A stretch of DNA of 64,000 nucleotides from Candidatus Gastranaerophilales bacterium (GCA_017402995.1 JAFQOV010000004.1:54485-118484); one strand, 5' to 3'; positions 15,279 through 37,577 are shown, numbered from the stretch's first letter. Made by a program: numbers and translations. Notes: generated from the sequence alone by a model not told the origin.

Positions 15279-15282
15279 CAAC

Positions 15283-15307: not shown

Positions 15308-15312
15308 AACTT

Positions 15313-20432: not shown

Positions 20433-20441
20433 GTCCATTAA

Positions 20442-20517
20442 GCCCCCATCGTCTAGAGGCCTAGGACAACACCCTTTCACGGTGTAGACAGCGATTCGAA
20501 TTCGCTTGGGGGTACCA
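20442..20517 (+). tRNA. tRNA-Glu (anticodon TTC), CCA encoded
   Basis: GCCCCCATCGTCTAGAGGCCTAGGACAACACCCTTTCACGGTGTAGACAGCGATTCGAATTCGCTTGGGGGTACCA. The anticodon loop is CTTTCAC and the D-loop is Glu-type TCTAGAGGCC. Confidence 0.9.
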
Positions 20518-20523
20518 TATAAT

Positions 20524-20555
20524 AAAAAAAGACCGCAATTGAGCGGTCTTTTTTA
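20524..20555 (+). terminator. rho-independent terminator after tRNA-Glu
   Basis: gaccgc-aattga-gcggtc followed by T6. Confidence 0.85.
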
Positions 20556-20728
20556 TTATATGTAAAGCAGCAACGAACAAATTATTCGCTTGGCGAATTT
20601 TGACTAGGGCGGAACAGAGCTTTAGCTCGTTGTGAGCCCGTATGTTTGAGAAAGTTGTTGGAGCGAAAATTTTGCTTTTGCAAAATTGAAGTGGAATACT
20701 AAACTTTCGAGTTGTCAAAATTCAAGAC

Positions 20729-20742
20729 GGGGTACCATATAA
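20729..20742 (+). repeat. direct repeat of the tRNA-Glu 3' end plus trailer (GGGGTACCATATAA; first copy at 20509-20522)
   Basis: 14/14 identity including 6 nt beyond CCA; each copy is followed within 30 nt by a terminator hairpin. Confidence 0.8.
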
Positions 20743-20747
20743 ATAAT

Positions 20748-20770
20748 AAGCGCCATTAGGCGCTTTTTTA
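20748..20770 (+). terminator. rho-independent terminator-like hairpin
   Basis: agcgcc-atta-ggcgct followed by T6. Confidence 0.75.
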
Positions 20771-20800
20771 GTGTTTAATTTTAGATTTTATAATTAATAA

Positions 20801-21118
20801 TTAATTAAAAGAAGAATATATACTATAAAGTAATAGAATTTCATCTTTGTTATTGGAATCTAAAATTTTCTGTATTTCATTCTTTATATATTTTAAATCT
20901 TTTTCTTTACTAAAATCGAAAAGTTCGTTCAATTCGACGTCAAGTGAATTTGCAATTTTAACCAATAAATCAAAAGAGGGGTTGGTTCTTGCAAGTTCTA
21001 ATTTTGAAATATGGTTTGTTGAATAATGTGTTTTTTCAGCGAGTTTTTCTTGAGTAAAACCTTTTTTGTTTCTTAAATATGCAATTCTTTTTCCTAATAA
21101 TATAAGTGATTGTTTCAT
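20801..21118 (-). CDS. XRE-family HTH transcriptional regulator (candidate R-M controller protein)
   Basis: LGKRIAYLRNKKGFTQEKLAEKTHYSTNHISKLELARTNPSFDLLVKIANSL is a classic Cro/C1 HTH; divergent from mod. Confidence 0.8.
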   Translation of the reverse strand: MKQSLILLGKRIAYLRNKKGFTQEKLAEKTHYSTNHISKLELARTNPSFDLLVKIANSLDVELNELFDFSKEKDLKYIKNEIQKILDSNNKDEILLLYSIYSSFN

Positions 21119-21171
21119 ATATACTCCTACTAATCATAGTAGTTGGAATTTAAGAAATATTACATTGAATG

Positions 21172-21212
21172 ACATGATTAATTCCAATCATGTTATAATC
21201 ATGCCATGATTA
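21172..21212. promoter_or_regulatory. two palindromic operator-like sites sharing the AATCATG half-site, flanking a TGnTATAAT extended -10
   Basis: ACATGATT-aattcc-AATCATGT (21172-21193); TAATCATG-c-CATGATTA (21196-21212); TGTTATAAT at 21191-21199. Confidence 0.6.
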
Positions 21213-21222
21213 GCTAGTAAAC

Positions 21223-23205
21223 ATGATAGGAATAGTAATGGTAGAAAGTTTAATTGAACAATTACCTAAAATTGTTGCCGAAGGCAAGAAGGAAGTTGAG
21301 CGTATAATGGAACGTTTGGAAAGCAATAATAAAATTACTCTTCAAACTAATGAATATGTTTTACCTATAAGAAAAGAAGCTAATTTATTTAAAGGTAGAT
21401 ACCAAGAAATAGATGGACAAAATTGGTTCAATAGGCTTTGTTATGGTGATAATCTTCTTGTTATGCAAGCTTTATTAAACGGTGACGGAGCGACAGGTTT
21501 ACCTTCTATGCGTGGTATGATTGATTTAATCTACATTGACCCACCTTATGATAGTAAAGCAGATTATAGAACCAAGATTACTCTTCCTGGTTGTGATATT
21601 GAACAAAAACCAAATGTTTTAGAACAATTTGCATATTCTGATACTTGGAAGGATGGAACAATTTCTTATTTAAAAATGATGTATCCTAGATTATATTTAA
21701 TGAGAGAATTGCTTTCAGAGCAAGGCGGTATATATGTGCATGTTGATTGGCACATCAGTCATTATATAAAAATATTACTAGACAACATATTTGAAAAATA
21801 TAATTTCAAAAACGAAATTGCTTGGCGAAGAGGTAATGCAAATACTAATACAAGTGCTAAACAGTACAGTCGTAATCATGATGTGATATTGTATTATTCA
21901 AAAAGTGAAAAAAACATTTTTTTAAGGCAATTTAAACCATATTCAGAAGCAACATTGAAAATGTATAAATATGATGATTTTGATGGAAGAGGCAAATATA
22001 GATTGCAAGAATTACGTGATTATTCCGAAGAAACAAGAAAGCTATTACGGCTTGAAAATAAAATTTATTTTAATGGAACAAAAGAGTATTTAAAGCAGTA
22101 TTTAACAGACAAAGAAGGCACTGCTCTGGATTCAATTTGGGAAGATATACCTTCATTACAAGGCAGTGGAAGCGAAAGATTGAATTATGCGACGCAAAAA
22201 CCAGAAAAATTATTAGAGCGAATAATAAAATCTTCTTCCAATGAAAATTCTATAGTAGCAGATTTTTTTGGAGGTTCTGGCACTACTGCAACAGTTGCAG
22301 AAAAACTTGGAAGAAGATGGATAACATCAGATTTTGGCAAGCCTGCAAATATGATTATGCGCAAACGGTTAATTGATAATGAAGCAAAACCATTCTTATA
22401 TCAAGCAGTTGGTGATTACCAAAGAGAAGTATTTACTTCCACAAAAGAATTTAAACGTGTTGGAGATTTATCACAAGTTGTATTAAATCTTTTTGGAGCA
22501 ATGCCATTTACAGACGAAAATTCTCCAAGAAATTTAGGTCAATTAAAAGGTTCAAGAACTTTAGTTTATGTCGATAGTCCTAATAAAATGACAGGAGCTT
22601 CAACCATCAAAAAAGCTCAAGAGTTAAAAGAAAGCTTTATGGGTGGTTGGGGCAAAGTTGTTATTCTGGGCTGGAATTTTACTTTTGATATTGCAACCGT
22701 ATTGAAAGATATTGATAGAACTCAAATAGAAGTTCTAGTTATACCACCAGATTTATTAAATAAGTTAGCTAAAAATTCAAGTTATCAACAATTGGTTAAA
22801 AACCAAACAGTTAGATTTGCTTCATTACAGTATTTGACGGTTAAAGAACCTGTAATTAACAACCTTACTTGCGATATTGAAGAACTTGAAATTGAATTAG
22901 ATAATTATGTATTACTATCACCAGATGCTTTGCCTCTTGATGATAAATATAAAGAGCAATTGCAAAATATTATGGCTAATGATCCACTGGCTTTAATTGA
23001 ATATTGGAGTGTGGATCCTGATTTTGATGGAGGAACCTTCAGAAGTAAATGGCAAGATTATCGTGAAAATACTCATAATGATGACGACCCATTGAGAGTT
23101 GTTAAAAAAGCGAAAATTCATGTTCCGAGAAAAGAGAATAGAATGATTTGCATAAAAGCTGTTGATGTTTTTGGTTTTGAAAGCGTTGTAATTAAGGAGG
23201 TATAG
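21223..23205 (+). CDS. mod: Type III restriction-modification DNA methyltransferase (Mod), beta-class N6A/N4C MTase
   Basis: Motif [12 protein letters not shown] precedes motif [21 protein letters not shown]. 660 aa. The stop is 2 nt before the res start. Confidence 0.85.
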
Positions 23206-23207
23206 AC

Positions 23208-26111
23208 ATGCCAATTTCTACTAATACAGGAACAAGAGATATCCCATTGCAATTTGCTAAACAGTTAAGTGAAATTGTCAATCAAGAGTGGGAAAGCGGC
23301 AGTTTTATACAAAAAGTCACTCCTGTTACACAGGATTTATTAAGATATTGGTTTAATCCTGTGTTTTGCGAAACAAGAGTTATTAATTTTCACAAAGGGC
23401 AAAAACAAGCTATTTTGAACGCAATTTATTGTCATGAAATTTTAAAAATTGATTCAATACTTTCTATGTATCAACAAGCGAGTCAAGATTTATTATCTCC
23501 TAATTTTTTTAATTACATTGCAAATGATAAATTTCAATATCCAAAATATTGCGTTAAAATGGCAACAGGCACAGGAAAAACATTTGTTTTAAATGCTTTA
23601 TTAATATGGCAATATCTGAATGCGAAGTTTAAAGAAGTTGAAAATAACGTTAAATATACGAAAAATTTTTTATTGGTTGCGCCAGGGTTAATTGTTTATG
23701 AAAGATTATTAGACGCATTTTTAGGTAAAGAACAAGAAGACGGGACAAGAGATTTTTTATCTTCGGACATTAAAAGAAATGAAAATTTATTTATTCCTGA
23801 GCGATATAGACAAACTGTTTTTAGTTTTATTCAAAATAATGTAGTCAAAAAAGATGAAATCGGTAAAAAAATTACCGGTGATGGCTTAATAGCTATCACA
23901 AATTGGCACTTGCTGGCTGGAGTTGAAGAAACAATAGAAGATACGAAAGTTTCACCATTACAAGACCCAAGCAATATTGTCAAAGATTTATTACCAATTA
24001 CTCCTGGCGTTACAGCAGGCCATGATTTGAATATAATTGATAACAAATATTTAAAAGGCGGAGAATTAGAATATTTGCAATCATTAGAAAATATTTGTGT
24101 ATTCAATGACGAAGCTCATCATATTCATGAAAATAAACAAAATGGTCTTGTTGCAGAAGTGGAATGGCAAAAATCACTAAATTTTATTTCTGAAAACAAA
24201 GGCAAAAATTTTATTCAAATAGATTTTTCTGCAACGCCATACAGCGTAACAGGCTCTGGTCAAAAAAGAACAAAACATTATTTTCCTCATATAATAGTAG
24301 ATTTCGCCTTAAAGGAAGCGATTAGAGAAGGTTTGGTTAAGACAATAGCTATTGATAAAAGAAAAGAGATTGCAACAATAGAAAATGAAGACTTGGATTT
24401 CAAGGCTAAAAAAGATGGTGCAAATGTTATCGATTTGTCAGACGGACAAAGATTAATGATTCGAGCTGGTTTAGCTAAATTAAAATTGCTGGAAGAAGAA
24501 TTTGTTAAAGAAGCAGAAAATAAGCACCCCAAAATGTTGATAATGTGCGAAAATACAAAGGCTTCACCATTCGTAATTGATTTTTTAAAACAAGAAGGTT
24601 TGGCAGATGATGAAATTATTCAAATAGATACAGATAAACAAGGTGAAGTTTCTGTAAAAGAATGGGCAACCATAAAACAGAGGTTATTTAATGTTGATAA
24701 GCATTCTAATCCAAAAGTTATTGTTTCTGTTTTAATGCTTCGAGAAGGTTTTGATGTTAGCAATATTTGTGTGATTGTTCCATTGCGCTCTGCGCAATCA
24801 AATATTTTGCTGGAACAAACAATTGGTCGTGGCTTACGTTTAATGTGGAGAGAGAAAGACTATCAAGATATTAAAGCTGAAAATAGACACAAAATGTTTA
24901 TTGAAAAACAAAGCCCTGTTAACTATCTTGATATTTTAAGTATTATTGAACACCCCGCTTTTATTCAGTTTTATGATGATTTAGAAAATGGAATGATTGT
25001 CGAAGAAAAAGAAATGCCACCAAAAGAAAGCGTTCTGGGTGATATTATAACAGTTGGTTTAAAAGAAAACTACGAAAAATACGATTTTTATATACCAACC
25101 ATTGTTTCAGACAAAGAAGAAATTTTAAAATTGGGCGAATTGGAAACAAGCAATTTTAATAAACTGCCTTGGTCTTTATCTCAACTTAAAGAAATTGTTA
25201 AAAATTATGGTGATGAAAGTTTTTATTCAGAAGAAATGACAGTAAAAACAAGATTTGGAGATTATAGAGTTTCTTCTCGATTATTTAATGCAAAAAGTTA
25301 TAATGAGTTTTTGGCAAGAATGCTTGACGCTATTACAAATAATATGGCAAGAATTGCCGGACATTCTTCATATCCGGCAATGCAGATAAATCAAGTTGCC
25401 TTGGTAGAAGTGATTGACAAATACATAAGAACACAATTGTTTGGAGAGAAATTTGATCCAAGCACAGAGAATAACTGGCGAGTTTTATTGGTTGCAAAAG
25501 TTGGAATTCTTGAACATATTATGAAGGAGATCAGCAAATCAATCTATGATATGCAAAATAGTATAGAAATTTCAGAAGCAACGGTAATGAAAAAATATTT
25601 TTCAGAAGTTGATAAAATTAAAATGAGGGAAAATTTTGCGTTAGATATTCAAAAATCAATATACGAAAAAACCGCATATCCATCTAATAAGGGTGATTTT
25701 GAAAAAGATTTTTTAATTTTTGCAGATAAAGATTCGCAAGTAGAAAGATTGTTAAAGATTAATGAAAATTATCATATGTTTGCTAATTTGAAATACATTA
25801 GAACAGATGGATTGTTTTCATCTTATTATCCAGATTTTTTAGTAAAAATAGAAGATAGCATTTATTTTGTTGAAACAAAAGCTCAAAAAGATGTAGAACA
25901 AACGAATATCAAACAAAAGCAAAGAAGTGCTTTAGACTGGTGTAAAAAAGTTAATGAATTAAGACCAGAAGAAAGAATGTTTTCAACTTGGAGATATTCA
26001 ATTCTTGATGATAATACATTTTATTCTATGCAAGCCAGGGGTGCTTCAACCTTGGATCTGCTTGAATATTGCAAATTAACAAATGGAAAAATTGAAGGAA
26101 AGCTGTTTTAA
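23208..26111 (+). CDS. res: Type III restriction enzyme Res subunit (SF2 helicase plus PD-(D/E)xK nuclease)
   Basis: MATGTGKT (motif I), NDEAHH (motif II), QTIGRGLR (motif VI), C-terminal YYPDFLV...YFVETK nuclease motif; 967 aa. Confidence 0.85.
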   Translation: MPISTNTGTRDIPLQFAKQLSEIVNQEWESGSFIQKVTPVTQDLLRYWFNPVFCETRVINFHKGQKQAILNAIYCHEILKIDSILSMYQQASQDLLSPNFFNYIANDKFQYPKYCVKMATGTGKTFVLNALLIWQYLNAKFKEVENNVKYTKNFLLVAPGLIVYERLLDAFLGKEQEDGTRDFLSSDIKRNENLFIPERYRQTVFSFIQNNVVKKDEIGKKITGDGLIAITNWHLLAGVEETIEDTKVSPLQDPSNIVKDLLPITPGVTAGHDLNIIDNKYLKGGELEYLQSLENICVFNDEAHHIHENKQNGLVAEVEWQKSLNFISENKGKNFIQIDFSATPYSVTGSGQKRTKHYFPHIIVDFALKEAIREGLVKTIAIDKRKEIATIENEDLDFKAKKDGANVIDLSDGQRLMIRAGLAKLKLLEEEFVKEAENKHPKMLIMCENTKASPFVIDFLKQEGLADDEIIQIDTDKQGEVSVKEWATIKQRLFNVDKHSNPKVIVSVLMLREGFDVSNICVIVPLRSAQSNILLEQTIGRGLRLMWREKDYQDIKAENRHKMFIEKQSPVNYLDILSIIEHPAFIQFYDDLENGMIVEEKEMPPKESVLGDIITVGLKENYEKYDFYIPTIVSDKEEILKLGELETSNFNKLPWSLSQLKEIVKNYGDESFYSEEMTVKTRFGDYRVSSRLFNAKSYNEFLARMLDAITNNMARIAGHSSYPAMQINQVALVEVIDKYIRTQLFGEKFDPSTENNWRVLLVAKVGILEHIMKEISKSIYDMQNSIEISEATVMKKYFSEVDKIKMRENFALDIQKSIYEKTAYPSNKGDFEKDFLIFADKDSQVERLLKINENYHMFANLKYIRTDGLFSSYYPDFLVKIEDSIYFVETKAQKDVEQTNIKQKQRSALDWCKKVNELRPEERMFSTWRYSILDDNTFYSMQARGASTLDLLEYCKLTNGKIEGKLF

Positions 26112-26118
26112 TAAATAT

Positions 26119-26310
26119 ATGAAAGACCTAATTTCCATACTTTGTCTATTATCTGTTCCAATAGTTAAAGTTATCATTGTTTTGATAATCATAGCTTGCT
26201 TTTTGCCTGATGGGATTTTAAAAGACATTGTTTGTTTCATAACTGCTCTTTTAATTTTCTTGGGTATTATTGGCGGTTGCATAATTTATTTTATGAACCT
26301 TTTTAAATAA
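26119..26310 (+). CDS. small two-TM hypothetical protein
   Basis: 63 aa from the internal ATG; two hydrophobic helices; no clear RBS. The track start at 26083 overlaps res. Confidence 0.3.
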   Translation: MKDLISILCLLSVPIVKVIIVLIIIACFLPDGILKDIVCFITALLIFLGIIGGCIIYFMNLFK

Positions 26311-26320
26311 GTTTCGTTTT
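26293..26320 (+). promoter_or_regulatory. ECF-sigma-like promoter, copy 1 (TGAACC-N15-CGTT)
   Basis: 15-nt ATGAACCTTTTTAAA is identical to 26780-26794. Same spacing to the CGT motif and about 43 nt to the start codon. Confidence 0.45.
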
Positions 26321-26349
26321 ATAAAACAAGATTAAATAAGGAAAATATA

Positions 26350-26766
26350 ATGAAAAAATTATTAGCTTCATTTTTAACTTTGCTATTTTTATCTGCTTCA
26401 GTTTTCGCTGGAACAATAAATTCCTATGATAAATATGGTTCAAAAAGTGGGTCATATAGAACATCTGGCTCTATAACCACAAAATACAATAAATATGGCT
26501 CTAAAGAAAAAATCTACAAAAAACAAGGAAATAAAGTAACTGAATATAATAAGTATGGTTCAAAAACAGCTACATATAAAAAATCTGGCTCAACTACAAC
26601 AAAATATGATAAAAACGGAAGAAAACAAGCAACATATAAAACATCAGGTTCTACAACAAATGTTTATGACAAATATGGTAAAAAAACAGGTTCATATAAA
26701 AAACAATCAAATGGAAAAGTTGTAGAATACGATAAATACGGGCGTAAGGTTGGCACTTATAAATAA
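26350..26766 (+). CDS. secreted mini-protein made of six YD-like 20-aa repeats
   Basis: Signal peptide MKKLLASFLTLLFLSASVFA, then YDKYGSKSGSYRTSGSITTK-type units x6 (26425-26763). Confidence 0.6.
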   Translation: MKKLLASFLTLLFLSASVFAGTINSYDKYGSKSGSYRTSGSITTKYNKYGSKEKIYKKQGNKVTEYNKYGSKTATYKKSGSTTTKYDKNGRKQATYKTSGSTTNVYDKYGKKTGSYKKQSNGKVVEYDKYGRKVGTYK

Positions 26767-26779
26767 AATATTTTCAAAA

Positions 26780-26807
26780 ATGAACCTTTTTAAAATTAAA
26801 TCGTTAT
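26780..26807 (+). promoter_or_regulatory. ECF-sigma-like promoter, copy 2 (TGAACC-N15-CGTT)
   Basis: See copy 1; located 44 nt upstream of the 26838 start. Confidence 0.45.
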
Positions 26808-26837
26808 AAATAATATAGCGATACGAAGGGGTGGACT

Positions 26838-27140
26838 ATGAAAAAAATTTTACTTTTATCTATTTGTTTTTTGACTTTAACATCAACATCTTTTGCAAGT
26901 TTGCAAGATGAAGTAATGAATTACGAAAACAAAAAAGCACAAGACATCAACATTACGCACGACAAACATGAATATATTAAAAAAGGTAGATATATTTATA
27001 GAGTTGATAAAAACGGCGACTTGGTGGGATTTTATAAGACTTCTGCAAGCGGAAAGAAAATCACGTCTTATGATATGGATGGAAACAAAATCCGCACATA
27101 TAGAATGTCTCCAACTGGTAAGTTAAGAATTTATGATTAA
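26838..27140 (+). CDS. secreted protein with YD-like repeats (paralogue-like of 26350 gene)
   Basis: Signal peptide; YRVDKNGDLVGFYKTSASGKKITSYDMDGNKIRTYRMSPTGKLRIYD. Confidence 0.6.
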   Translation: MKKILLLSICFLTLTSTSFASLQDEVMNYENKKAQDINITHDKHEYIKKGRYIYRVDKNGDLVGFYKTSASGKKITSYDMDGNKIRTYRMSPTGKLRIYD

Positions 27141-27165
27141 AAAGCGCCATTTTGGCGCTTTTTTA
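27140..27165. terminator. bidirectional terminator between convergent genes
   Basis: aaaagcgcc-atttt-ggcgctttttt. Confidence 0.85.
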
Positions 27166-30100
27166 TTTTACTTCGTTATATAATTTTTCAAGAATTTTTA
27201 GCTTTGTTCCCGTTTCTTTATATCTTAAAAGCTCACAGATTTCTTCTTCTAACACTTTAGATAAATCATAGCTATAACTTGCGAGCCTTTTGTCTTGGTT
27301 TTTGTCTAAAAATTCGGATAAAATTCGAACCAAAACTTCTATATATGACATGTTTTCTAAAGCTTTTTTGTTGATGCAAACGGCAGGTTTTTTGCCAATA
27401 TATGCTCTTTTGAAAAGCTCAGCTGTGTCGTTATCTTCAACAAGTTGAAGTTGAATATTTTTTATCTCATTCAAATGTTCATAATAGATTTGATTTGTGA
27501 TTAAACTTAATCCTTGATAAAGAATATTTAATTTTTTATTTTCTTTTTCATTTGCTTCTTGGCTATGTATTACGCTTTCTTTTTCATGGTATTGCTCTGC
27601 TGAAACAATTCCAAGTTTTGCATATTCCTTATTAACAAATCTGAAACCGTTATCAATAAAATAGTGTCTTGCCTTTTCGTTAAGAGGTGTTTGGTCTTTG
27701 TTTTTGCTGTTATTTATCCAAACAAGTTTGCTATCTTCTGATGAAATTCTAATCCCTCTTTGTACGGCGCTATCGATTAAGCCAAGCAAAAATGCTCTGT
27801 CTGTGCTGTTGCAGATGTTTACGCCCGCAAGTTTGTCTGAGTTTAAATTTGTAGTAGATAAGATTTCTTCTAATGTTGCAATGGCGCTGATTAGCTCTCG
27901 GGGCTTCATTGTTTTTGCATATTCGCAAGTTAACTTTCTCACCATTTTATGACTCAAATCGTTTCTATCCCTATCGTTTTGAAAATCAAAATGTTTGTTA
28001 ATTGCTTTAATGGTTTTTTTGAAAATAATATTTAAATTTTTTACCCCATTATCAATAGATTCATATTGCGGTCTATATCTTTGAATGTAGTACAAATTGC
28101 CATTATCATCAGGCATGTATTTAAAACCAAAATATTCGTTTTCAAAATCTAAATTAAAAAAGTCGGGGTTTTCTGGGTGATAGAAGTAATCTTTTGCTTG
28201 TAATAATGCTAAAACAACATTTGCGCTTTTTGTATCAAATTCAATGTAATTTCCTTCAAGATGTTCGTCATTTTTTGTTAAAGTTTCTGTCATGATTGCT
28301 GAAGCTATGTCATCTGTAGACCTGTTAAATTCTAAATTCCAATCACCACAACCATATTTGACAAAGCTTGTGCCTTCATTTGATAACAAACTAACGGCAA
28401 CAATTCTTGTGCCTTCGCCAAAAAAGCCTGCGCTTTGCGTATCGTTTTCTTTTGTTGAACTGCCAAGAGTTTGAAGGTGTGAATAATCGTATTTTCCAAG
28501 CCCTTCAACTCTGACTCTATATGTATAGTCATCATTTCTTGAGATTTTTATTTTTGTTCCCTCAAGAGTGTGTCCGTTGCCATCATAAAAGTTTTGCATA
28601 ATATCTCTTGCGATTTTGCTTTCGTCCCAATTGATTTTTGAGCCATAACGAATTGCGATTTTTGCGCTTTGCGGTTTGTTTAATCTTGCGATATCTTCTT
28701 CTTTAATTTTGGCTTTTTCCGTGTTTGTTGGTTTTGCGCCGCCTTGATTTTTAAGTTCAATATTAAGCTCATTGTTTCTATGGATTTTTGTAAGAAGCGA
28801 AAAAGCATTTGCTGGGCTTGGAATTTCGACATATGGTTTTTGAGCTTCAATTTTTCTATATGGATATTTTATACCTGAAACCGAAATGAGCGCGTTTTTA
28901 ATATCTTCTTTTGAAGGCTTATAAACGGCTGATTTTATTGGATATGATTTTTGATGTGTTTTTTTGTCGGATTTTCTTTGAGCTTTTTTTTCAAATTTTT
29001 CTTGGTTTAATGGGATAATTCTTTTTGTTGGCGCTGCATACATCATAGGGTCGTAGATTTCCCTTAATGCTATTAATTTTTTAATAGCAACAGGGTTGTG
29101 CATTAAGGTGCGTATAACAAATTGTTGCATTTTCATCATTTGTTCTGAAAATTCTTTGCTTGTATCTGAACCTGCTCTGTGTGACATTTCATGTAGCCAG
29201 GTTTCAAGATTTTTCGAATAAAAACTATCTAAATGGCAAGTATTAACTTTATGCCCATGATAAATTCCATCTTCGATTATTGCTTCTGCTACTGTGCAGT
29301 CATTACTGTCGCAATATATTTCTCTTAGCTTATCTGAGTCACCAAAGTCTAAAAGAGTGCGTTCTTCTGGCGATAGATTTTCTTCAAAAACCTTCACGGA
29401 CTCATCTGCAATACATATTTTTTTAACAATATCTCTTTTTTCTCTTTCTTTTATTTCCTCAGTTATTTCGTAATTAAAGACATAACTTTTCATTCCGATT
29501 TTTTCCATGTCTTTTATTGCAAGTTTATAGCCAAGACATTTTGCAAAATCTGAACCAAGTCCGCTATCAAGGCAAATGTATTTTTCTTTATCAAAATCTA
29601 TGCCAATTTTTCTTGATTTTGCTTCTTGTAAAATAACATTTAAAAATAGCCTTGCTTCGCTTGCTTCATATTTTTCTTCTGTTGCTAAATCCCAACAAGG
29701 TTTTAATGAAACGGCAATTTTGCACAAATCTTCATCACTTATGGTTTTGACATATCTTGCAAAAAGCTCTGTTAAATAATTGCTGTTAATTTGTGTTCTG
29801 TCTCTGCCGACTGCTCTTAAATAATTACCATTATTTTTTTCAACAAGTTCTGGGGAGTTTGGATTTCTTTTGAAAACAACATGGAAATTTTTCAATGGAA
29901 GGAAATTGCCTTTGTCTTCGTATTCAAATTTTTGAATAAGATATAAATCCCCATTGCTTTTTGGTAAAAATCTAAATCCAAAATATTCATTTTCGTAATC
30001 TAAATTGAAAAAATCAGGGTTGTTTGGGTGATAAAAATAATTTTTAGAGTCAAAAATTCTATTGATTAATTGCAGATTTGAAGTATCAAATTCGATATAG

Positions 30101-31386
30101 TTTCCTTCTATATGTTCATCATTTTTTCTTAAAGTTTGCGTCATTACGGCATCTTTGTTATTTTTAGATGATTTCTTAAATTCAAAACTCCAATCGCCTG
30201 AAGCGTATTTGATATAGTTTGTATCTCTTTTGGATAAAAGATTTGCTGCAACAATTCTTGTGCCTTCACCAAAACACCCTGCGCTAGAGAAGTCGTTGTC
30301 TTTCGAACTGTCGCCTAATGTTTCAAGGTGCGAATAATCGTATTTTCCAAGCCCTTCAATTCTAATGGTGCAAGAACCGTTTAATTTTCTTTTAACTTTG
30401 ATGGTTGTTCCTTCAAGAGTATATCCGTTGCCATCAAAAAAGTTTTGCATGATATCTCTTGCGATTTTTTCTTCGCTCCAATTGATTTTAGAGCCATATC
30501 TTATTGCAATGCCTGCATTTTGAGTTTTGTTTAGTTTTTCTTTATCTTCCTCTCGAATTAAAGCATTTTCATTTCTAACTGGCGCAGCACCACCTTTGTC
30601 TTTGATTGAAAGGCTGCTTTCGCCAATTGTCATAAGTTTAAGCATTAAAAGGCTTGTTGAAGCAAGTCCTTTAATATATTTATGTGGTTTTTTTGGTAGT
30701 TTTTCAAAAGGATATCTTGCTTCTAAATCACCGATTTCTTTTGTTGTAACGCAGTAATTGCTTTCTTTTCCAAGCAAAACAAGTTCGTCGCTATTGTCTT
30801 GTGTTTTGACTTCTTTTTCTAGCGTCTCTTTTTTTGTTGTTTCTTCAAAAGCTTCTATACTTTCTTCAATTTTTTTGCGAACATCTAAAACAAAGCTCTT
30901 TTTGTCAAACTCTTGCGGTGTTCTTTTTTCAATTGGCGTTAAATATCTTTTATATTCTTCATCATTCAATTCAAGAAGATGTAACCAAGACGCAAAGTTC
31001 ATCTCAAATTTGCCTTCAAGAACGCTTTTTAAAAGAGGTCGTTTTTGCAGGTTGATTAATTTTTTTCTAAAATCTTTATCAGAACAAGTGCTCAGCAGGT
31101 GGAAAGTTTTTTCGTAATTTTCATATTTTTTAAAAGCTTGGCGATAAACCAAAGAATTTATTTTTCTATCTTTTAAATCGCTTTTTAAAAGCCCTTCGAT
31201 TAAACTATCAAGTTTATTTTTTGCTTGATTTTGTTCTGTTTGCGCACGAGAAATCAAGCCTTTGAATTTTAATTCATTTTCAAGGCGTGGAAAGTTTGTT
31301 TGTATTGGTTTTGTTGCGTTTAGAAATTTTTTTTGCTCAGGTTTTTTCTGTTGCAAAAAAGAATTTTCAATGTTTTTTATTTTCAT
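27163..31386 (-). CDS. 1407-aa protein: tandem duplication of a ~420-aa GHKL (Hsp90/sacsin/MORC-like) ATPase-type module, one HExxH motif between copies
   Basis: Copies at aa ~225-640 (nt 29467-30714) and aa ~841-1265 (nt 27592-28866). Each has RDIMQNF[FY]DG, EGLGKYDYSHL.TLG.S[ST]K and AG[CF]FGEGTRIVA. WLHEMSHRAG lies at 29179-29193. Confidence 0.6.
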   Translation of the reverse strand: MKIKNIENSFLQQKKPEQKKFLNATKPIQTNFPRLENELKFKGLISRAQTEQNQAKNKLDSLIEGLLKSDLKDRKINSLVYRQAFKKYENYEKTFHLLSTCSDKDFRKKLINLQKRPLLKSVLEGKFEMNFASWLHLLELNDEEYKRYLTPIEKRTPQEFDKKSFVLDVRKKIEESIEAFEETTKKETLEKEVKTQDNSDELVLLGKESNYCVTTKEIGDLEARYPFEKLPKKPHKYIKGLASTSLLMLKLMTIGESSLSIKDKGGAAPVRNENALIREEDKEKLNKTQNAGIAIRYGSKINWSEEKIARDIMQNFFDGNGYTLEGTTIKVKRKLNGSCTIRIEGLGKYDYSHLETLGDSSKDNDFSSAGCFGEGTRIVAANLLSKRDTNYIKYASGDWSFEFKKSSKNNKDAVMTQTLRKNDEHIEGNYIEFDTSNLQLINRIFDSKNYFYHPNNPDFFNLDYENEYFGFRFLPKSNGDLYLIQKFEYEDKGNFLPLKNFHVVFKRNPNSPELVEKNNGNYLRAVGRDRTQINSNYLTELFARYVKTISDEDLCKIAVSLKPCWDLATEEKYEASEARLFLNVILQEAKSRKIGIDFDKEKYICLDSGLGSDFAKCLGYKLAIKDMEKIGMKSYVFNYEITEEIKEREKRDIVKKICIADESVKVFEENLSPEERTLLDFGDSDKLREIYCDSNDCTVAEAIIEDGIYHGHKVNTCHLDSFYSKNLETWLHEMSHRAGSDTSKEFSEQMMKMQQFVIRTLMHNPVAIKKLIALREIYDPMMYAAPTKRIIPLNQEKFEKKAQRKSDKKTHQKSYPIKSAVYKPSKEDIKNALISVSGIKYPYRKIEAQKPYVEIPSPANAFSLLTKIHRNNELNIELKNQGGAKPTNTEKAKIKEEDIARLNKPQSAKIAIRYGSKINWDESKIARDIMQNFYDGNGHTLEGTKIKISRNDDYTYRVRVEGLGKYDYSHLQTLGSSTKENDTQSAGFFGEGTRIVAVSLLSNEGTSFVKYGCGDWNLEFNRSTDDIASAIMTETLTKNDEHLEGNYIEFDTKSANVVLALLQAKDYFYHPENPDFFNLDFENEYFGFKYMPDDNGNLYYIQRYRPQYESIDNGVKNLNIIFKKTIKAINKHFDFQNDRDRNDLSHKMVRKLTCEYAKTMKPRELISAIATLEEILSTTNLNSDKLAGVNICNSTDRAFLLGLIDSAVQRGIRISSEDSKLVWINNSKNKDQTPLNEKARHYFIDNGFRFVNKEYAKLGIVSAEQYHEKESVIHSQEANEKENKKLNILYQGLSLITNQIYYEHLNEIKNIQLQLVEDNDTAELFKRAYIGKKPAVCINKKALENMSYIEVLVRILSEFLDKNQDKRLASYSYDLSKVLEEEICELLRYKETGTKLKILEKLYNEVK

Positions 31387-31485
31387 TTTGCTTTCCTGCT
31401 ATGTAAATAAAAAACAAAGGCTTTTAAAATTGATACAAACAGAATAACTTGTTAACATTTGTTAAAACTCGGTTTGAGGCAAATT

Positions 31486-33231
31486 TTAGTTTAACAAATT
31501 TAAAACATCTTCTGTAATTAATTGTGGTGTTAAATGATATTTTTCGTATAGTTTTTCTTGCGAAATTCTATCTGTGAACTCTTTTTGTGCGCCAAAGTTT
31601 AAAACTTTTATGGTTGAATTTGCAAAATATCTTGAAATTTTTTCACCAAAACCACCATCTAAAACACCATCTTCAAGAGTTATCACAATAGAGTGGTCTT
31701 TTTTCAAACTTTCTAAAAGCTCTTTATCAACTCCTGTGATAAATTTTGGGTTGATAATTGTTGGGTTAATTCCTTTTTCATTCAATATTTTTTCTGTTTC
31801 TAAAGCCAAATTATAAAAATTACCAAGACCCAAAATTGCAACTTTTTCGCCTTTTTTGGTGATTTCATATTTGTTTAAAATTGAATAATTTGTTTCGTCT
31901 TTTTTGCCTGTTGATTTTAGCGGAATATATGGAACACGAATTGCAACAGGATAATCTTTTTGATTAACTGACCAATCTAACATTGCAAGATATTCCTCTT
32001 TGTTTGTTGGTGCAAGATAGACAATATTTGGAATATTAGAAATTAATGGAATATCAAAAACGCCAAGGTGCGTGCAATCTGCACCTGTGATTGCGCCCCA
32101 ATAGACTAAAATTGTCGCTGGAGAATTGTTTAGGGCTAAATCTTGCGACAATTGGTCGTATGTTCTTTGCACAAATGAGCTTAAAATTGCCAAAACAGGC
32201 TTTGCGCCACCTTTTGCAAGACCAGAAATAAACCCAATTCCATGTTCTTCTGAAATTGCAACGTCAACATAATTTTCGCCTAATTTTTCTCTAAATTCTT
32301 GGTAAAAACCTGTTGCCCCAGGGGTTGCTGGAGTTATTGCAACGATTGGTTCACCTTCTTCTTTTTTTCTTAAAATATAATCTGTTGTAATTGATTCATA
32401 TGTTTCAATGTTTTCAAATGTTTGGTTTTCATCTAAAAAGTTAGGCACTTGCCAGTGATATTTTTCTTTTTGAGCTTCCGCAGGTTTATATCCTTTTCCT
32501 TTAAGAGTGTGAAGATGAACAATAATCGGCTTTTTGGTATCTTTTACTTTTTTGAAAGTTTGGATTAATTTTTCAATATTATTTCCTTCTTCAAGATAGC
32601 AATAGTCAAAGCCAAGAGTTTTGAAGAAATTATTTTCATATTCTCCATTTGTTTTTCTTAATTGTTCAAGATTTTTATATAATCCGCCTTGGTTTTGAGC
32701 GATAGACATTTCATTATCATTAACAATAATAATAAAATTTCCATTAAAAATACTTGCCTGATTTAAACCTTCAAGCGCTTCACCGCCAGATAAAGAACCA
32801 TCTCCGATTAGAGCAATAACGTTAAAATCTTCTTTTTTTAAATCTCTTGCTTTAGCTAAACCTAAAGCCAAAGAAACTGAGGTTGATGTATGACCAATTG
32901 TAAAATGGTCATGGCAAGATTCATTTGGTGCGCTATAACCTGAAATTTTTGAATAGTATTCAGGGTTGAAAAAGCCTTCTTTTCTTCCTGTTATCATTTT
33001 GTGCGGATAACATTGGTGCGAAACGTCAAAAACAAATTTGTCCACAGGTGAATTAAAAACGTAATGCAGAGCAATCATAGTTTCAATAATACCCAAATCG
33101 GGTCCGACGTGTCCACCAATAGCATTTACTCTTTTTAAAATACCTTCTCTCATTTCATCTGCTAAGATATTCATTTCTTCAACAGATAATGTTTTCAAGT
33201 CTTTTGGTGAATTAATTTTATCTAAAATCAT
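31486..33231 (-). CDS. dxs: 1-deoxy-D-xylulose-5-phosphate synthase
   Basis: GGHVGPDLGIIETMIALHYVF, DVSHQCYPHKMITGR, TPP motif IGDGSLSGGEALEGLN. Confidence 0.88.
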   Translation of the reverse strand: MILDKINSPKDLKTLSVEEMNILADEMREGILKRVNAIGGHVGPDLGIIETMIALHYVFNSPVDKFVFDVSHQCYPHKMITGRKEGFFNPEYYSKISGYSAPNESCHDHFTIGHTSTSVSLALGLAKARDLKKEDFNVIALIGDGSLSGGEALEGLNQASIFNGNFIIIVNDNEMSIAQNQGGLYKNLEQLRKTNGEYENNFFKTLGFDYCYLEEGNNIEKLIQTFKKVKDTKKPIIVHLHTLKGKGYKPAEAQKEKYHWQVPNFLDENQTFENIETYESITTDYILRKKEEGEPIVAITPATPGATGFYQEFREKLGENYVDVAISEEHGIGFISGLAKGGAKPVLAILSSFVQRTYDQLSQDLALNNSPATILVYWGAITGADCTHLGVFDIPLISNIPNIVYLAPTNKEEYLAMLDWSVNQKDYPVAIRVPYIPLKSTGKKDETNYSILNKYEITKKGEKVAILGLGNFYNLALETEKILNEKGINPTIINPKFITGVDKELLESLKKDHSIVITLEDGVLDGGFGEKISRYFANSTIKVLNFGAQKEFTDRISQEKLYEKYHLTPQLITEDVLNLLN

Positions 33232-33359
33232 GGTTTTTTCCTTATTTCTATATAAACATTTTACTCAAAAAATATTTATATACACAAAAAAAGTATGCTA
33301 AAAATAGCATACTTTTTATATGAAATAAGTAATGATGTTATATTTTATGTTGTTATAAG

Positions 33360-33686
33360 TTATTCTGCAACTGTTTCTGCAACTTTTTCAGCTTTTTTTG
33401 GAAGTTTTTCAACAACGAAATCTTTAACTTTGTTGAATTTTTCTACAACGAAATCCCAAGCTTTTTTTGCGCCTTTAACAACAAAAGCACCCATTGCTTT
33501 GTAGCCTTCAGCTAATGCTGGAAGGATTTTTTTGAAGCCAGTTGCTTCAACTTTACCTTTACCTAATGCGAAAGCTGCTACTGCAGAAGCTGCTGCAACT
33601 GTTGCAACTGTTGCGCTAGAAACTACTGCTGCTTTTTTTGCTTTTGTGAAACCTTGAGAAGGTTGAATTGGTTGAATACCTGTCAT
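33360..33686 (-). CDS. small Ala/Val/Lys-rich hypothetical protein with one hydrophobic segment
   Basis: 108 aa; internal repeat DFVVEKFNKVK / DFVVEKLPKKAEK. The antisense ORF 33295..33504 was rejected. Confidence 0.45.
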   Translation of the reverse strand: MTGIQPIQPSQGFTKAKKAAVVSSATVATVAAASAVAAFALGKGKVEATGFKKILPALAEGYKAMGAFVVKGAKKAWDFVVEKFNKVKDFVVEKLPKKAEKVAETVAE

Positions 33687-33924
33687 AACAACACCTTACT
33701 TTCTATTATATTAATATCATACACCTATACAAAACTTGTGAATTTTTAAATTTGCTCTTGTTAATTTAGTTCTTTACAATAATTTACATAATAACATAAA
33801 ATTTATAACATTAAAATCCTTAAAAAGTAATATTTTAACTAATGTTAATATTTAATTTCAATGTGACAAAGCAAAATTTTTGCTATATTATATTCTCAGT
33901 AACAATTATTTAAGAGAGATTAAA

Positions 33925-34785
33925 ATGGGATACGAAATTTTATATAAAAGAGAATTATGTACAAACCAATATGAAATCAGAGTGAAGGCTCCTTTCATCA
34001 CAAAAAACGCACAAGCTGGGCAATTTATCATTTTAAGAACAGATAAAAACTCTGAAAGAATTCCTTTAACAATTGCTGATTACGATAGAAAAAATGAAAT
34101 TTTAACTATTGTATATATGGCTGTTGGATATACTACTAAAAAACTTGCTTCACTTGAAGTTGGAGATGAAATCGAAGATATCGTCGGCCCATTAGGTGTT
34201 GCTACGCATATTGAAAATTATGGAAATGTTATTTGCGTTGCTGGTGGCTATGGCGCTGCTCCTTGCTATTTGATTGCAAAAGCATTTAAGGAAGCTGGAA
34301 ATAATGTTCATATGGTTATGGGCGCAAGAACAAAAGATTTAATCTTTTGGGAAGACAAAATGAAACATGCTTGTAATGAATTGCACATCACAACAGATGA
34401 CGGCACCTTGGGTTATAAAGGTTTTACAACAGAAGTTGCAAAACAAATTATTGATAACGAAAAGGTAGATTACGTTATCGCCGTTGGGCCAATGCCAATG
34501 ATGAGAGCAGTTGCTGAATTAACAAGACCATATGGAATTAAAACTGAAGCTTCAATGAATCCAATTATGGTTGATGGTACTGGCATGTGTGGTGCATGTC
34601 GAGTTACAGTTGGTGGCAAAGTTAAATTTGCGTGTGTTGATGGACCTGATTTTGACGCACATCAAATTGATTTTGATGAAGTTATCAACAGAACAAGAAT
34701 ATATAAAAAAGAAGAAAAAAATTGCGACGAAACAAAATGTAATTTAATTAAAAAAGGTATAGAATTAGAAAAAGCAAACGCTTAA
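33925..34785 (+). CDS. PyrK/NfnA/SudB-like FAD/NAD(P)-binding ferredoxin reductase subunit with C-terminal 2Fe-2S cysteines
   Basis: GQFIILR...ERIPLTIADYD (FAD binding), GGYGAAP (NAD binding), CGACRV...C cluster motif; start at MGYEILYK is preferred. Confidence 0.75.
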   Translation: MGYEILYKRELCTNQYEIRVKAPFITKNAQAGQFIILRTDKNSERIPLTIADYDRKNEILTIVYMAVGYTTKKLASLEVGDEIEDIVGPLGVATHIENYGNVICVAGGYGAAPCYLIAKAFKEAGNNVHMVMGARTKDLIFWEDKMKHACNELHITTDDGTLGYKGFTTEVAKQIIDNEKVDYVIAVGPMPMMRAVAELTRPYGIKTEASMNPIMVDGTGMCGACRVTVGGKVKFACVDGPDFDAHQIDFDEVINRTRIYKKEEKNCDETKCNLIKKGIELEKANA

Positions 34786-34795
34786 GGAGTTTTGA

Positions 34796-34975
34796 ATGTC
34801 AGAACAAGTTAAAAAAAGAATACCATTTTGCCCAATGTTATCTATGGGCATAGGTGATTACAAAGTTTGTGTTCAAGATGATTGCGCTTGGTATATGTCT
34901 AGCACAAAAACTTGTGCAGCATATGTTATTGCGCACAATAACATATTAGAAATTAAATCTAAACAAGGAAAATAA
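34796..34975 (+). CDS. small Cys-rich hypothetical protein (59 aa), below the ORF-track cutoff
   Basis: AAGGAG RBS 7 nt upstream; [59 protein letters not shown]; the stop is 1 nt before the next gene's ATG. Confidence 0.45.
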
Positions 34976-34976
34976 A

Positions 34977-36251
34977 ATGACCAAAAAGCCAATGACAATT
35001 ACTCAAAAAATATTTGCGCTGCATGCTAATAAAGATTATGTTGCGCCAAACGAGCTTATTGAAGCAAAGATTGATATTGCCTTGGCTAACGATATTACTG
35101 GTCCGATTGCGATTGATGAATTTAGAAAAACGGGCGCAAAAGCTGTTTTTGACAAGTCTGGTGTTGTTTTGGTTCCTGACCATTTCACTCCAAACAAAGA
35201 TATTAAATCTGCAATTCAAGCAAAAATCCTTCGCGAATTTATTTTTGAACAAGATTTAACTCACAAATTTGACGTTGGTACAATGGGAATTGAACATGCG
35301 CTTTTGCCAGAAAAAGGCATTGTGACTGCGGGCGATTTGATTATTGGCGCCGATTCTCATACTTGCACATATGGTGCTTTGGGTGCTTTTTCAACTGGTG
35401 TTGGCTCAACAGATTTAGGTTGCGCTATGGCAGCAGGAGACACTTGGTTTAAGGTTCCAGAAAGCATTAAAGTTGTTTTTGAAGGCGAAATGCCAAAATA
35501 TTTAACCGCAAAAGATTTAATTTTGCACCTAATTGGCGATATTGGCGTTGACGGTGCTTTATATAAAGCTCTTGAATTTACCGGCAGTGCAATTCGCAAA
35601 ATGTCTATGGATCAAAGACTAACTCTTTGCAACATGGCAATTGAAGCGGGTGCTAAAAATGGCATAATAGAACCTGATGAAATCACAAAAGAATATTTAA
35701 AAAATCGCTCAATTAGAGAGCCAAAATTTTTATATAGCGACGAAGATGCGCCATATGAAAAAGTTTTGGTTTATGATGTATCTAAAATTCCTTTAACTGT
35801 TGCATATCCTCATTTGCCTGAAAACACACACAGTGTTGAAGAAGCAATTAAAGAAAACATAAAAATTGACCAAGTTGTAATTGGTAGTTGTACAAATGGT
35901 CGTTTGGAAGATTTGAAAATGGCGGCTGAAATTTTCAAAGGCAAAAAAGTACACCCTCGCGTTCGCGCGATTGCTTTTCCAGCAACTCAAGATATTATTT
36001 TGAAAGCAATTGAACTTGGATATTACCAAACGCTGATTGAAGCAAATGTTGCAATTTCAACCCCAACATGCGGTCCTTGTTTGGGTGGACATTGTGGAAT
36101 TTTGGCAGATGATGAAGTTTGCGTTTCAACAACAAACCGCAATTTTGTTGGCAGAATGGGACATACGTCATCTAAAATTTATCTTGCAAGCCCATATGTT
36201 GCCGCTGCAAGTGCGATTATGGGTCGAATTGCTAGTCCAGAGGAAATATAG
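34977..36251 (+). CDS. leuC: aconitase-family dehydratase large subunit (3-isopropylmalate/homoaconitate dehydratase LeuC/HacA type)
   Basis: 424 aa; [43 protein letters not shown]. Confidence 0.8.
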
Positions 36252-37577
36252 ATGAAAAAAGTTTTTCTTTGCCTCGCTTGTTTGATTTTTTCTTTCACTT
36301 CTGCAAAAGCAGATGAAATTGACAAACTAATTAAAGAATTTAATTTAAATAAAAAGTCCGAATTGAGCGTATATGTTAAAAATTTGGACACAAATAAAGT
36401 TTTATATAAAAAACATTCAAATAAACCTCTAAACCCTGCAAGCACTTTAAAGGTTTTATCGTACGGCGCAAGTTTATTGGTTTTAGGAAGTGATTACGAA
36501 TTTCAAACAGAATTGTTTGAAGACGGAAAAGACCTTTATTTAAAGCTTTCTGGCGATACAAAATTAACCTCTAAGGATTTAAAAAAACTTTTATCTAATG
36601 TTAAAAATAAAGAATATGAAAATATTTATATAGATAATTCTATTTTTGCAGATGAAAAATATCCAACCTCTTGGCTTGAAGAAGATAAATTTCCAAATCA
36701 AAGAGAGCTTTCGACATATATAATTGATAATAATATGGTAAAAATTGGCGTTAAACGCTCAAGTTTGGCGACAAATATTGAAATAATCCAAGAAGATGAA
36801 TATAAAATTGCGATAATTAACGATTTGAAAAATGCGCAAAATAATGAACAAAAAATCAAAATTGAAAGACTTCACGGCGAAAATGCACCAATTTTAACCT
36901 TTAGTGGTGAAATTTCAAAAGACGAAGTTATTAATTTGCCTGTGTTAAATCCTGAAATCAACTTTATGGTTAAATTTCAAAAAGCGCTAGATGACAATAA
37001 AATCGTTTGTTTGAAAAAGATAGTTAATAAAAATGTTCCACAAAATGCGCTTAAAATTGCTGAAATTTCTAGAAATATCACCGATTTTTCAAATGATATT
37101 TTATATCGTTCTGATAATTTTACATCTGAAATCATCACAAAAGTTGCAACAGCAAAATATATTAACTATTCACACCCTGCAGGGTTTGTTGATGAAATTA
37201 ATATGTTAAATGACATTTTTAATATATCTGATGAAAAAATCCAAATCGCTGACGCTAGCGGAGTTTCAAGGAAAAATTTAATCACAACAGAATTTTATAT
37301 TAATTCAATTGAAATGCTTTTTGATAAAACCCTAATTTCAAACATGTTAATGGGTGCAAACCAAGGCACAATGAGCGGAAGAGGTTTGTTTTTAAAAGAT
37401 AATTTAAAAGCAAAAACAGGAACGTTAAAAAATTATTCTTCAATTTTTGCAAATTTAATTACAAAAAATAATAATAATCTTGTTTTAATTTCAATTGAAC
37501 AAGATTCAACTCTTAGAAAAGCTTTGCTTAAAAATTTCGAGGATATGTTAATCGGTTTGCTTTATAAAAAATATTAA
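36252..37577 (+). CDS. dacB: D-alanyl-D-alanine carboxypeptidase/endopeptidase, PBP4 (S13) family
   Basis: Signal peptide; SxxK (ASTLK), SxN (RSDNF), KTG (KAKTGT). Confidence 0.72.
   Translation: MKKVFLCLACLIFSFTSAKADEIDKLIKEFNLNKKSELSVYVKNLDTNKVLYKKHSNKPLNPASTLKVLSYGASLLVLGSDYEFQTELFEDGKDLYLKLSGDTKLTSKDLKKLLSNVKNKEYENIYIDNSIFADEKYPTSWLEEDKFPNQRELSTYIIDNNMVKIGVKRSSLATNIEIIQEDEYKIAIINDLKNAQNNEQKIKIERLHGENAPILTFSGEISKDEVINLPVLNPEINFMVKFQKALDDNKIVCLKKIVNKNVPQNALKIAEISRNITDFSNDILYRSDNFTSEIITKVATAKYINYSHPAGFVDEINMLNDIFNISDEKIQIADASGVSRKNLITTEFYINSIEMLFDKTLISNMLMGANQGTMSGRGLFLKDNLKAKTGTLKNYSSIFANLITKNNNNLVLISIEQDSTLRKALLKNFEDMLIGLLYKKY

Follow-up and report, generated by a model that had tools for sequence, protein, structure and literature searches.

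A gene on the minus strand of a 64,000-nucleotide (nt) stretch of DNA from Candidatus Gastranaerophilales bacterium (GCA_017402995.1 JAFQOV010000004.1:54485-118484; referred to below as the window, from whose first letter all positions are counted) encodes a protein of 1407 amino acids (aa) that consists of a variable N-terminal region and two tandem units. Structure prediction supports the assignment of both repeats as Bergerat-fold (GHKL) modules of the Hsp90/sacsin type, and the first of them alone is followed by an HExxH sequence that is probably a catalytic zincin motif. We consider it quite possible, if short of probable, that the protein is a stand-alone, nucleotide-gated clamp or chaperone coupled in cis to a metalloprotease and fused here as an asymmetric covalent pseudo-dimer, a mechanism that we infer from the features described below and listed in Table 1.

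The open reading frame (ORF) is preceded, 8 nt upstream of its ATG, by a Shine-Dalgarno-like AGGA, and its product is a 100% match to the hypothetical protein IJD57_01760 of a Candidatus Gastranaerophilales metagenome-assembled genome (MAG), the Gastranaerophilales being non-photosynthetic gut Melainabacteria. The ratio of non-synonymous to synonymous substitution (dN/dS) between the gene and its 88%-identical orthologue P0002 was 0.13 overall and 0.11 in unit 2, indicating that both units are under purifying selection. No transmembrane helix or signal peptide was found in the 1407-aa protein, in which the Kyte-Doolittle value of any 19-residue window reached at most 1.09 and the N-terminus was hydrophilic, and the protein is thus predicted to be soluble, with no membrane-spanning segment. 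The first-pass annotation of the window had likewise recorded a single minus-strand ORF of about 4.2 kb whose product had neither a signal peptide nor a transmembrane helix, and both statements hold. The N-terminal region is the variable part of the protein among homologues, in which it ranges from 0 to >3000 aa.

The two halves of the protein aligned by BLASTP over 400 columns (aa 224-613 against aa 840-1231) with 45% identity (E=7e-111), and at the DNA level an identical stretch of 28 nt has survived at 28481-28508 and 30332-30359, an offset of 1851 nt or 617 codons. A hidden Markov model (HMM) of the unit gave two end-to-end matches in the 1407-aa protein, and likewise in every double-unit homologue. 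The 28-nt identity and the 617-codon offset had already been reported in the first-pass annotation, and the peptide blocks which it quoted from the two copies are all present at the places given. The tandem duplication that it proposed is real, but its extent had to be corrected, as the unit HMM shows that the whole of ~600 aa is repeated and not only ~400 aa. Orthologous units are more similar to each other than are the two units within one protein, and the duplication is therefore old. A different picture was seen in P0003 (L005 10001-14923, 1640 aa), where the two GHKL modules share 83% identity over 279 aa, versus 57% in the window protein, and this points to recent gene conversion between tandem units in some lineages.

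The protein belongs to a large family. An exhaustive profile search recovered 667 representatives at E<=1e-3, 414 of these at <=1e-10, and at 50% identity the family numbers at least 667 clusters; a word-indexed search found just 25 homologues. Members were found in metagenomic contigs of 29-72% GC, including those of Melainabacteria and Candidate Phyla Radiation bacteria. The majority are single-unit proteins of ~550-870 aa with the HExxH placed ~50 aa before the C-terminus. Proteins with two units, fused head to tail, measure 1150-6024 aa and are found chiefly in Gastranaerophilales, with the single and double types coexisting in some genomes. The GHKL motifs of these double-unit proteins are intact in both units in 32/32 cases. 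The proposal in the first-pass annotation that the family is undescribed was borne out: no model in Pfam, NCBIfam or PADLOC covers it, its named database entries are 'hypothetical protein' throughout (20 representatives listed, one of them with a taxon label, Berkelbacteria), and the literature library that was searched contained no description of the family or of a fusion between a GHKL module and a minimal zincin.

Unit 1 was modelled with AlphaFold2 from an alignment of 14 units (A1), with a mean predicted local distance difference test score (pLDDT) of 80.4 and a predicted template modelling score (pTM) of 0.64. When this model was compared with the PDB using Foldseek, the top 30 matches were all GHKL ATPases (best probability 0.99). 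TRAP1/Hsp90 led the list, with E-values of 3.9e-5 to 7.4e-5, probabilities of 0.96-0.99 and an alignment over the whole unit, and was followed by TopoVI-B, the ATPase domains of Topo II/IV, MORC2 (E~0.1), GRP94 and PhoQ. The Bergerat-fold reading of the repeats is supported by this model because the matches were solely to GHKL ATPases. The same fold, of Hsp90/sacsin/MORC type, had been named in the first-pass annotation, which also suggested the Foldseek comparison; run for unit 1, it returned the GHKL fold with TRAP1/Hsp90 first, and a weak NCBIfam sacsin match agrees with it. Whole-protein searches of Pfam, NCBIfam and PDB sequences gave nothing usable, and neither did PDB profile searches for the GHKL part with alignments A1 and A3, the latter being swamped by noise from a coiled-coil tail.

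The motifs of the family correspond to GHKL motif I (RDxxQNxxDG), the LG.S.K phosphate loop, motif III (G.FGEG) and motif IV. In unit 1 these are represented by R310-D311..N315..D318 (motif I), I343-x-G345-x-G347 (motif II, without Asp), LG.S.K362, G370..G373-E374-G375 (motif III) and G428 (motif IV), and in unit 2 by R927-D928..N932..D935, G987..G990-E991-G992 and D1138-R-D-R1141. Conservation was counted over 185 units from 169 proteins. Residues W303, R310, D311, Q314, N315, F316, D318, T323, G345, G358, K362, G370, G373, E374, G375, W399 and G428 were conserved at 92-99%, G326 at 91% and A369 at 89%, while R528, D529 and R530 of the middle region reached 88%, 95% and 99%. Taken motif by motif, D311, N315 and D318 are kept in 177-180 of the 185 units, in both repeats, with Asp as the base instead of Glu; G370, G373 and G375 in 173-182; G428 in 181; and G345 of the motif II GxG in 176. 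The invariant GHKL residues are equally kept in unit 1, in unit 2 and in single-unit proteins. The segment directly before motif III has low pLDDT in the unit 1 model, like flexible lids. In Hsp90, GyrB and MutL the second domain supplies a gamma-phosphate sensor, and by analogy the RDR of the middle region (528-530) is a plausible candidate for the counterpart of this basic residue.

A single HExxH is present in the protein (HEMSH, aa 732-736, nt 29179-29193). It follows copy 1, and the homologous site after copy 2 has degenerated to RILSEFLDK, as the first-pass annotation had noted in both respects. The AlphaFold2 model of the domain surrounding the motif (aa 632-789; pLDDT 91.2, pTM 0.86) consists of a helix, three strands, the HExxH helix and two further helices, a predicted topology typical of minimal zincins. 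The pattern T.LHE..H..G.D..F..L is invariant or nearly so family-wide and in an alignment of 33 diverse domains (A2), in which H732, E733 and H736 are invariant (33/33) and D741 is kept in >90%. The complete HExxH..D was found in 29/29 unit 1 copies and in 89/94 single-unit proteins, and the first His has been lost in all unit 2 copies. A catalytic role of the motif is thus probable for copy 1 only. In a PDB profile search with the domain, Wss1p was the best match (E=0.009), with the S. pombe WLM protein at E=0.24, and Pfam WLM (PF08325) was matched below threshold by 10/33, 5/33 and 2/10 members in separate searches (best E=3.8e-4).

GHKL enzymes act as dimers, with N-terminal gates that close upon nucleotide binding. 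Because they work in this way, we propose that single-unit members of the family probably homodimerise, and that the double-unit protein would probably be an asymmetric pseudo-dimer, in which two covalently joined halves, each a ligand-gated clamp, have a single protease site between them. In the likeliest mode of action the protein would serve as a self-contained chaperone-protease: the Hsp90-like modules, closing in response to their ligand, would trap a protein substrate, which the zincin domain would then cut in cis. The nucleotide would presumably be ATP, although, with Ile/Val in place of the canonical adenine-binding Asp, its base would have to be recognised in an unusual way.

Several results weigh against this proposal. 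The adenine-contacting Asp of motif II is missing from the family, with Ile, Val or Leu at position 343 in 182/185 units. The first-pass annotation had read the motif as [DE]xGxG and was off by one, as E344, which is variable (S/E/T/K), lies one residue past the canonical Asp position. A local hhalign alignment, itself non-significant, places aa 343 on Hsp82 D79. In Hsp90 the substitution D79N at this adenine-binding Asp abolishes ATP binding. With the Asp lost, ATP binding by the pocket cannot be assumed, and it may bind another ligand or nothing. At the level of profiles, the NCBIfam model NF047352 (sacsin N-terminal ATP-binding-like domain) matched aa 930-994 at E=7e-4 with 19.9 bits, below its curated cutoff of 50, and matched 2/14 family members, while PF13589 (HATPase_c_3) gave a sub-threshold match in 1/33 members (E=0.024) and none in the window protein. 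An hhalign comparison of the family profile with the N-domains of Hsp82 and MutL was not significant. For the protease domain, Wss1/WLM came first in three independent searches (PDB profile, Pfam and Foldseek), none of them significant alone: in Foldseek the Wss1 structures 5xbn and 5ln5 took ranks 1-2 with a root-mean-square deviation of 3.3 A over 81 columns and probabilities of 0.72/0.51, at E~1, and no member ever reached the WLM gathering cutoff of 26 bits. The third zinc ligand of WLM, the last His of HExxHx5H, is also absent, the family having HExxHx4D, in which Asp at +5 is presumed to take its place. As no match was significant alone and Asp stands in place of His, we refer to the domain as a WLM-like zincin and not as a WLM member. 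Finally, genomic context gave no functional partner and the substrate class is therefore a guess.

The altered motif II could also be taken to mark the Bergerat module as a pseudo-ATPase that needs no ligand and serves as a scaffold or binds the substrate, leaving the zincin as the sole catalytic activity. The near-universal loss of the Asp fits such a module, given the effect of D79N in Hsp90. However, D311, N315, D318, K362, GxxGEG and RDR are nearly invariant over a family that spans 29-72% GC, and the residues for Mg2+, phosphate and catalysis are kept even in the protease-less unit 2, which would be hard to explain without a bound ligand. We therefore regard this explanation as unlikely.

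The neighbourhoods of homologues were analysed in two sets. In the first, all ORFs of 81 Gastranaerophilales-type loci were clustered, and the commonest neighbour family was present in just 17/81 loci. Recurrent neighbours in this set were pilin-like N_methyl proteins, XerC/D-type recombinase, histidine kinases, EngA, AroC (chorismate synthase), DnaN and ValRS, all common multi-copy or housekeeping families without a fixed position. The second set comprised 79 diverse loci of 29-72% GC (76 from a metagenome scan and four fetched earlier; one without a detectable family ORF), and no neighbour family occurred in >4/79 of them. Over these ~160 loci neither a recurrent restriction-modification (R-M) or defence family nor a conserved partner gene was found. 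The contexts of four other double-unit homologues (P0003, P0007, P0012 and P0021) are housekeeping. Individual loci are of note. In L083 (3593-6490) an HTH_3-HSP20 fusion gene precedes the single-unit homologue of Candidatus Berkelbacteria (MDO8649780.1) by 66 bp and a cyclophilin gene adjoins the homologue, and in L113, from another lineage, an HSP20 gene lies 1.6 kb from the homologue; as support for a role in proteostasis such neighbours are anecdotal. In L006/L084/L089 a single-unit homologue is situated between uvrC/uvrA and uvrB, and in the unrelated contig L129 a gap of 115 bp separates the end of uvrC from the homologue downstream of it, both genes being on the same strand.

The latter arrangements could be envisaged as the trace of a DNA-associated protease, in which a GHKL module acting as a DNA clamp, in the manner of MutL, MORC and topoisomerases, brings a Wss1/SPRTN-like metalloprotease to stalled complexes or to crosslinks between DNA and protein. 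Wss1/WLM proteins are DNA-protein-crosslink proteases, and it is to Wss1/WLM that the HExxH domain is nearest. Besides the uvr neighbours in two unrelated lineages (L006 and L129), P0065 adjoins a uracil-DNA glycosylase gene, and the N-terminal region of the window protein is basic (pI 9.2). However, two uvr adjacencies in ~50 independent loci with flanks are, by our estimate, near chance. Pfam-type searches of the protein and its homologues found no DNA-binding domain, and the best structural match is Hsp90 and not MutL, MORC or Topo. A cluster of apparent 'UvrA' neighbours in the Gastranaerophilales loci proved on inspection to be merely generic ABC ATPases, and the linkage to DNA repair is therefore left as a low-confidence alternative, which we judge to be distinctly unlikely.

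The N-terminal extensions of homologues, and in P0030 a C-terminal one as well, are mosaic, containing HD domains as well as weak matches to LysM and EF-hand. The giants of the family (P0030 and L017-L029) measure from ~2900 to 6024 aa. In P0030, the longest, long helical repeat regions flank the double unit on either side, and at least one HD phosphohydrolase domain and a weak LysM match are present; a second HD-like segment was seen by eye alone. P0012-P0016 and P0030 share a conserved N-terminal 'GK(T/V)(E/Q)LINQI' head and, from reading the sequences, Gly-rich hydrophobic segments. The N-terminus of P0021 had also been taken by eye as RelA/SpoT-like, an assignment that was dropped when Pfam found nothing. 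Several Gastranaerophilales-type members (L018, L028, L035, L040, L067, L080 and L081) are filed under MAGs of a Methanomethylophilaceae archaeon, Muribaculaceae or Gammaproteobacteria, and these labels are probably binning or labelling errors and not horizontal transfer.

Extensions as huge, variable and mosaic as these (up to 6024 aa, with HD domains, weak LysM/EF-hand matches and Gly-rich hydrophobic segments) might suggest that a gut symbiont secretes or delivers the protein as an effector or toxin, with the double unit as a conserved module for delivery or processing and the extensions at the N-terminus as its cargo. The window protein, though, has an N-terminal region of 214 aa alone and no signal peptide or transmembrane segment, and a conserved C-terminal part with a variable N-terminal part is the reverse of what is seen in polymorphic toxins. 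Nor was an immunity-like conserved neighbour or a downstream partner present in the loci examined, and the synteny is stable and the selection purifying. An effector role is thus improbable.

The gene lies close to a Type III R-M system and a tRNA-Glu gene, as the first-pass annotation had correctly pointed out. The genes for the control protein, Mod and Res form a cassette of ~6 kb (window 20774-26760) without an integrase or transposase. In L001, the contig that carries P0002, the gene order matches that of the window, with aconitase, a DHODB-type Fe-S/NAD-binding oxidoreductase, dxs, the giant gene, small ORFs, a 200-aa ORF and an FtsH-like gene. Comparison by BLASTN showed that window 15228-20773 and 26761-41390 align with L001 at 91-94%, and that window 20774-26760 is replaced there by ~400 bp. 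The cassette is therefore a strain-specific indel. The giant gene, directly downstream of dxs and on the same strand, is conserved backbone that has been vertically inherited, the R-M cassette is the insertion, and their adjacency is accidental. Since L001 retains the giant gene without the cassette, the gene does not qualify as a component of the Type III R-M system.

Thus, the proposal of the first-pass annotation that a role in defence is plausible was not borne out, the 88%-identical orthologue sharing the housekeeping synteny but lacking the R-M cassette, and across the ~160 loci the homologues behave as conserved genes without defence enrichment, an outcome that the same annotation had named as one that would speak against it. 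PADLOC found no defence model in the window protein or in two homologues. That the protein is a paraMORC-type defence or conflict protein, tied to the Type III R-M system beside it as part of an island at tRNA-Glu, is accordingly very improbable: the gene does lie ~1 kb from res, tail to tail, unit 1 does have a GHKL fold, MORC-type GHKLs have reportedly been linked to R-M by comparative genomics (by Iyer, Abhiman and Aravind, in 2008) and the distant homologue P0160 has transposase, resolvase and PIN genes around it, but the cassette is absent from L001 with identical flanks, PADLOC is negative, no defence family recurs over 160 loci, the structural matches prefer Hsp90 over MORC, and the dN/dS of 0.13 and the conserved synteny fit a core gene.

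Table 1. Positions in the window of the 1407-aa gene, its predicted domains and motifs, and neighbouring features.
Feature	Protein position (aa)	Window position (nt)	Strand	Remarks
ORF		27163..31386	-	Complete, 1407 aa plus stop
N-terminal region	1-214	30745..31386	-	Lys-rich, pI 9.2; without domain match
Unit 1	215-835	28882..30744	-	GHKL-like module, middle region and WLM-like zincin domain (unit HMM, AlphaFold2, Foldseek)
Predicted Bergerat-fold core of unit 1	~295-450	30037..30504	-	Motifs I-IV
R528-D529-R530	528-530	29797..29805	-	Middle region of unit 1
Zincin-like domain of unit 1	632-789	29020..29493	-	AlphaFold2 and profile searches
H732-E733-M-S-H736-R-A-G739-S-D741	732-741	29164..29193	-	Family-wide HExxHxxGxD motif, presumed zinc site
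Unit 2	836-1407	27166..28881	-	Architecture as unit 1; GHKL motifs intact, zinc motif lost
RILSEFLDK	1354-1362	27301..27327	-	Corresponds to the HExxH helix of unit 1; degenerate
Hairpin		27139..27163		GC-rich, A and T runs at flanks; between the stop of the 1407-aa gene and the convergent small ORF 26838-27140
tRNA-Glu		20442-20517
Helix-turn-helix (HTH) control protein (C-protein)		20801-21118	-
mod		21223-23205		Type III Mod
res		23208-26111		Type III Res

Other features of the locus were also recorded. The hairpin that separates the 1407-aa gene from its convergent neighbour is, from its sequence, likely to be a bidirectional terminator. The 3' end of the tRNA-Glu gene (GGGGTACCATATAA...) at 20509-20529 is repeated at 20729-20749, 220 bp downstream and just before the left edge of the indel, and looks like an att-like scar of an integration hot spot; the repeat is probably shared with L001, since it falls in a part of the window that aligns to this R-M-less relative. 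An ORF of 138 aa (26350-26766, plus strand), mostly inside the indel, contains a 30-nt periodic repeat, with six overlapping copies at 26418-26717 that encode a Tyr/Lys/Gly/Ser-rich decapeptide, and L001 has a different ORF of 133 aa there. The FtsH-like protein (16162-19203, minus strand, 1013 aa) has its AAA and Peptidase_M41 domains in the C-terminal half alone (aa ~557-954), with an N-terminal region of ~550 aa without annotation, and is kept in L001.

The proposed coupling of a clamp to a protease can be set beside several known systems. The Hsp90 family (HtpG/TRAP1/GRP94) provides the best structural match, with the whole unit aligned at E=3.9e-5, and like the family described here it has an invariant basic motif (RDR in our family) in the domain that follows. 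By eye, we take IARDIMQNFYDG to resemble FLRELISNASDA, LG.S.K to resemble LGTIAKSG and G.FGEG to resemble GQFGVG; motif I of the family, RDxxQNxxDG, is presumably the equivalent of RELISNASDA in Hsp90. In contrast to Hsp90, there is no significance at the sequence level, the catalytic Glu is Asp, the position of yeast D79 is Ile/Val, the MEEVD motif and the C-terminal dimerisation domain are lacking, a zincin is fused to the module, and the window protein has two units per chain.

In the repeat regions of sacsin (SRR/SIRPT) and in bacterial sacsin-type HATPase_c_3 proteins, tandem Hsp90-like ATPase supradomains are found in one giant polypeptide (PMC3710099). The window protein is also a tandem of Hsp90-like modules, and the sacsin model NF047352 is the sole curated model that matches in the GHKL region. 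This match remains far from its cutoff (19.9 versus 50 bits, in 2/14 members), however, and the window protein lacks DnaJ, HEPN and UBL domains and has two repeats and not three, together with a protease domain. With WLM/Wss1 (SprT/SPRTN-like) proteases the family shares a small three-stranded sheet followed by the helix that bears the HExxH, and its T.LHE..H..G.D..F..L context resembles Wss1 LHELTHNLFGPHDKKF, whereas its third ligand would be Asp at +5 and not His at +6, all scores are sub-threshold, SUMO/ubiquitin- or VCP-binding modules are missing, and the domain is fused to a GHKL module. MORC/paraMORC proteins share the Bergerat fold, with MORC2 among the weaker structural matches (E~0.1), and the window copy adjoins an R-M system; unlike them, the family has no HATPase_c_3 match, its R-M neighbour is a dispensable indel, and homologues are without recurrent R-M linkage. 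FtsH and Lon offer a functional analogy only, in that an NTPase clamp or unfolding module and a zinc protease would be combined in one polypeptide, and they differ in being AAA+ and not GHKL, hexameric and not dimeric, and M41 and not WLM-like.

GHKL ATPases (Hsp90, MutL, topoisomerases, MORC and histidine kinases) and minimal zincins (Wss1/SPRTN) have been heavily studied. Both component folds are thus already known, and what is new, as far as we found, is the fusion of a GHKL module to a zincin, the consistent absence of the adenine-binding Asp, and the naturally asymmetric tandem. For the prediction of defence systems from genomic islands the locus is a caution, as a core gene stands here beside an R-M system that is itself the insertion. 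The loss of the Asp in a pocket whose catalytic and phosphate residues are kept raises the question of what the pocket binds, and the tandem form, with two conserved clamp modules and one protease site, is a ready-made asymmetric dimer for mechanistic work. Whether the window protein is the first recognised member of a widespread class of self-contained GHKL-metalloprotease machines, in which a clamp with altered base recognition gates a Wss1-like protease in cis and the Gastranaerophilales giants are natural covalent heterodimers, is a more doubtful matter, which we put forward as a possibility on the unlikely side. If true, the covalent heterodimers, with two clamps and one protease, would show how the single-unit homodimers work. 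If the similarity to Wss1 reflects function, the family could be the bacterial counterpart of the eukaryotic DNA-protein-crosslink or SUMO/ubiquitin-linked Wss1 proteases, with a GHKL motor replacing Cdc48.

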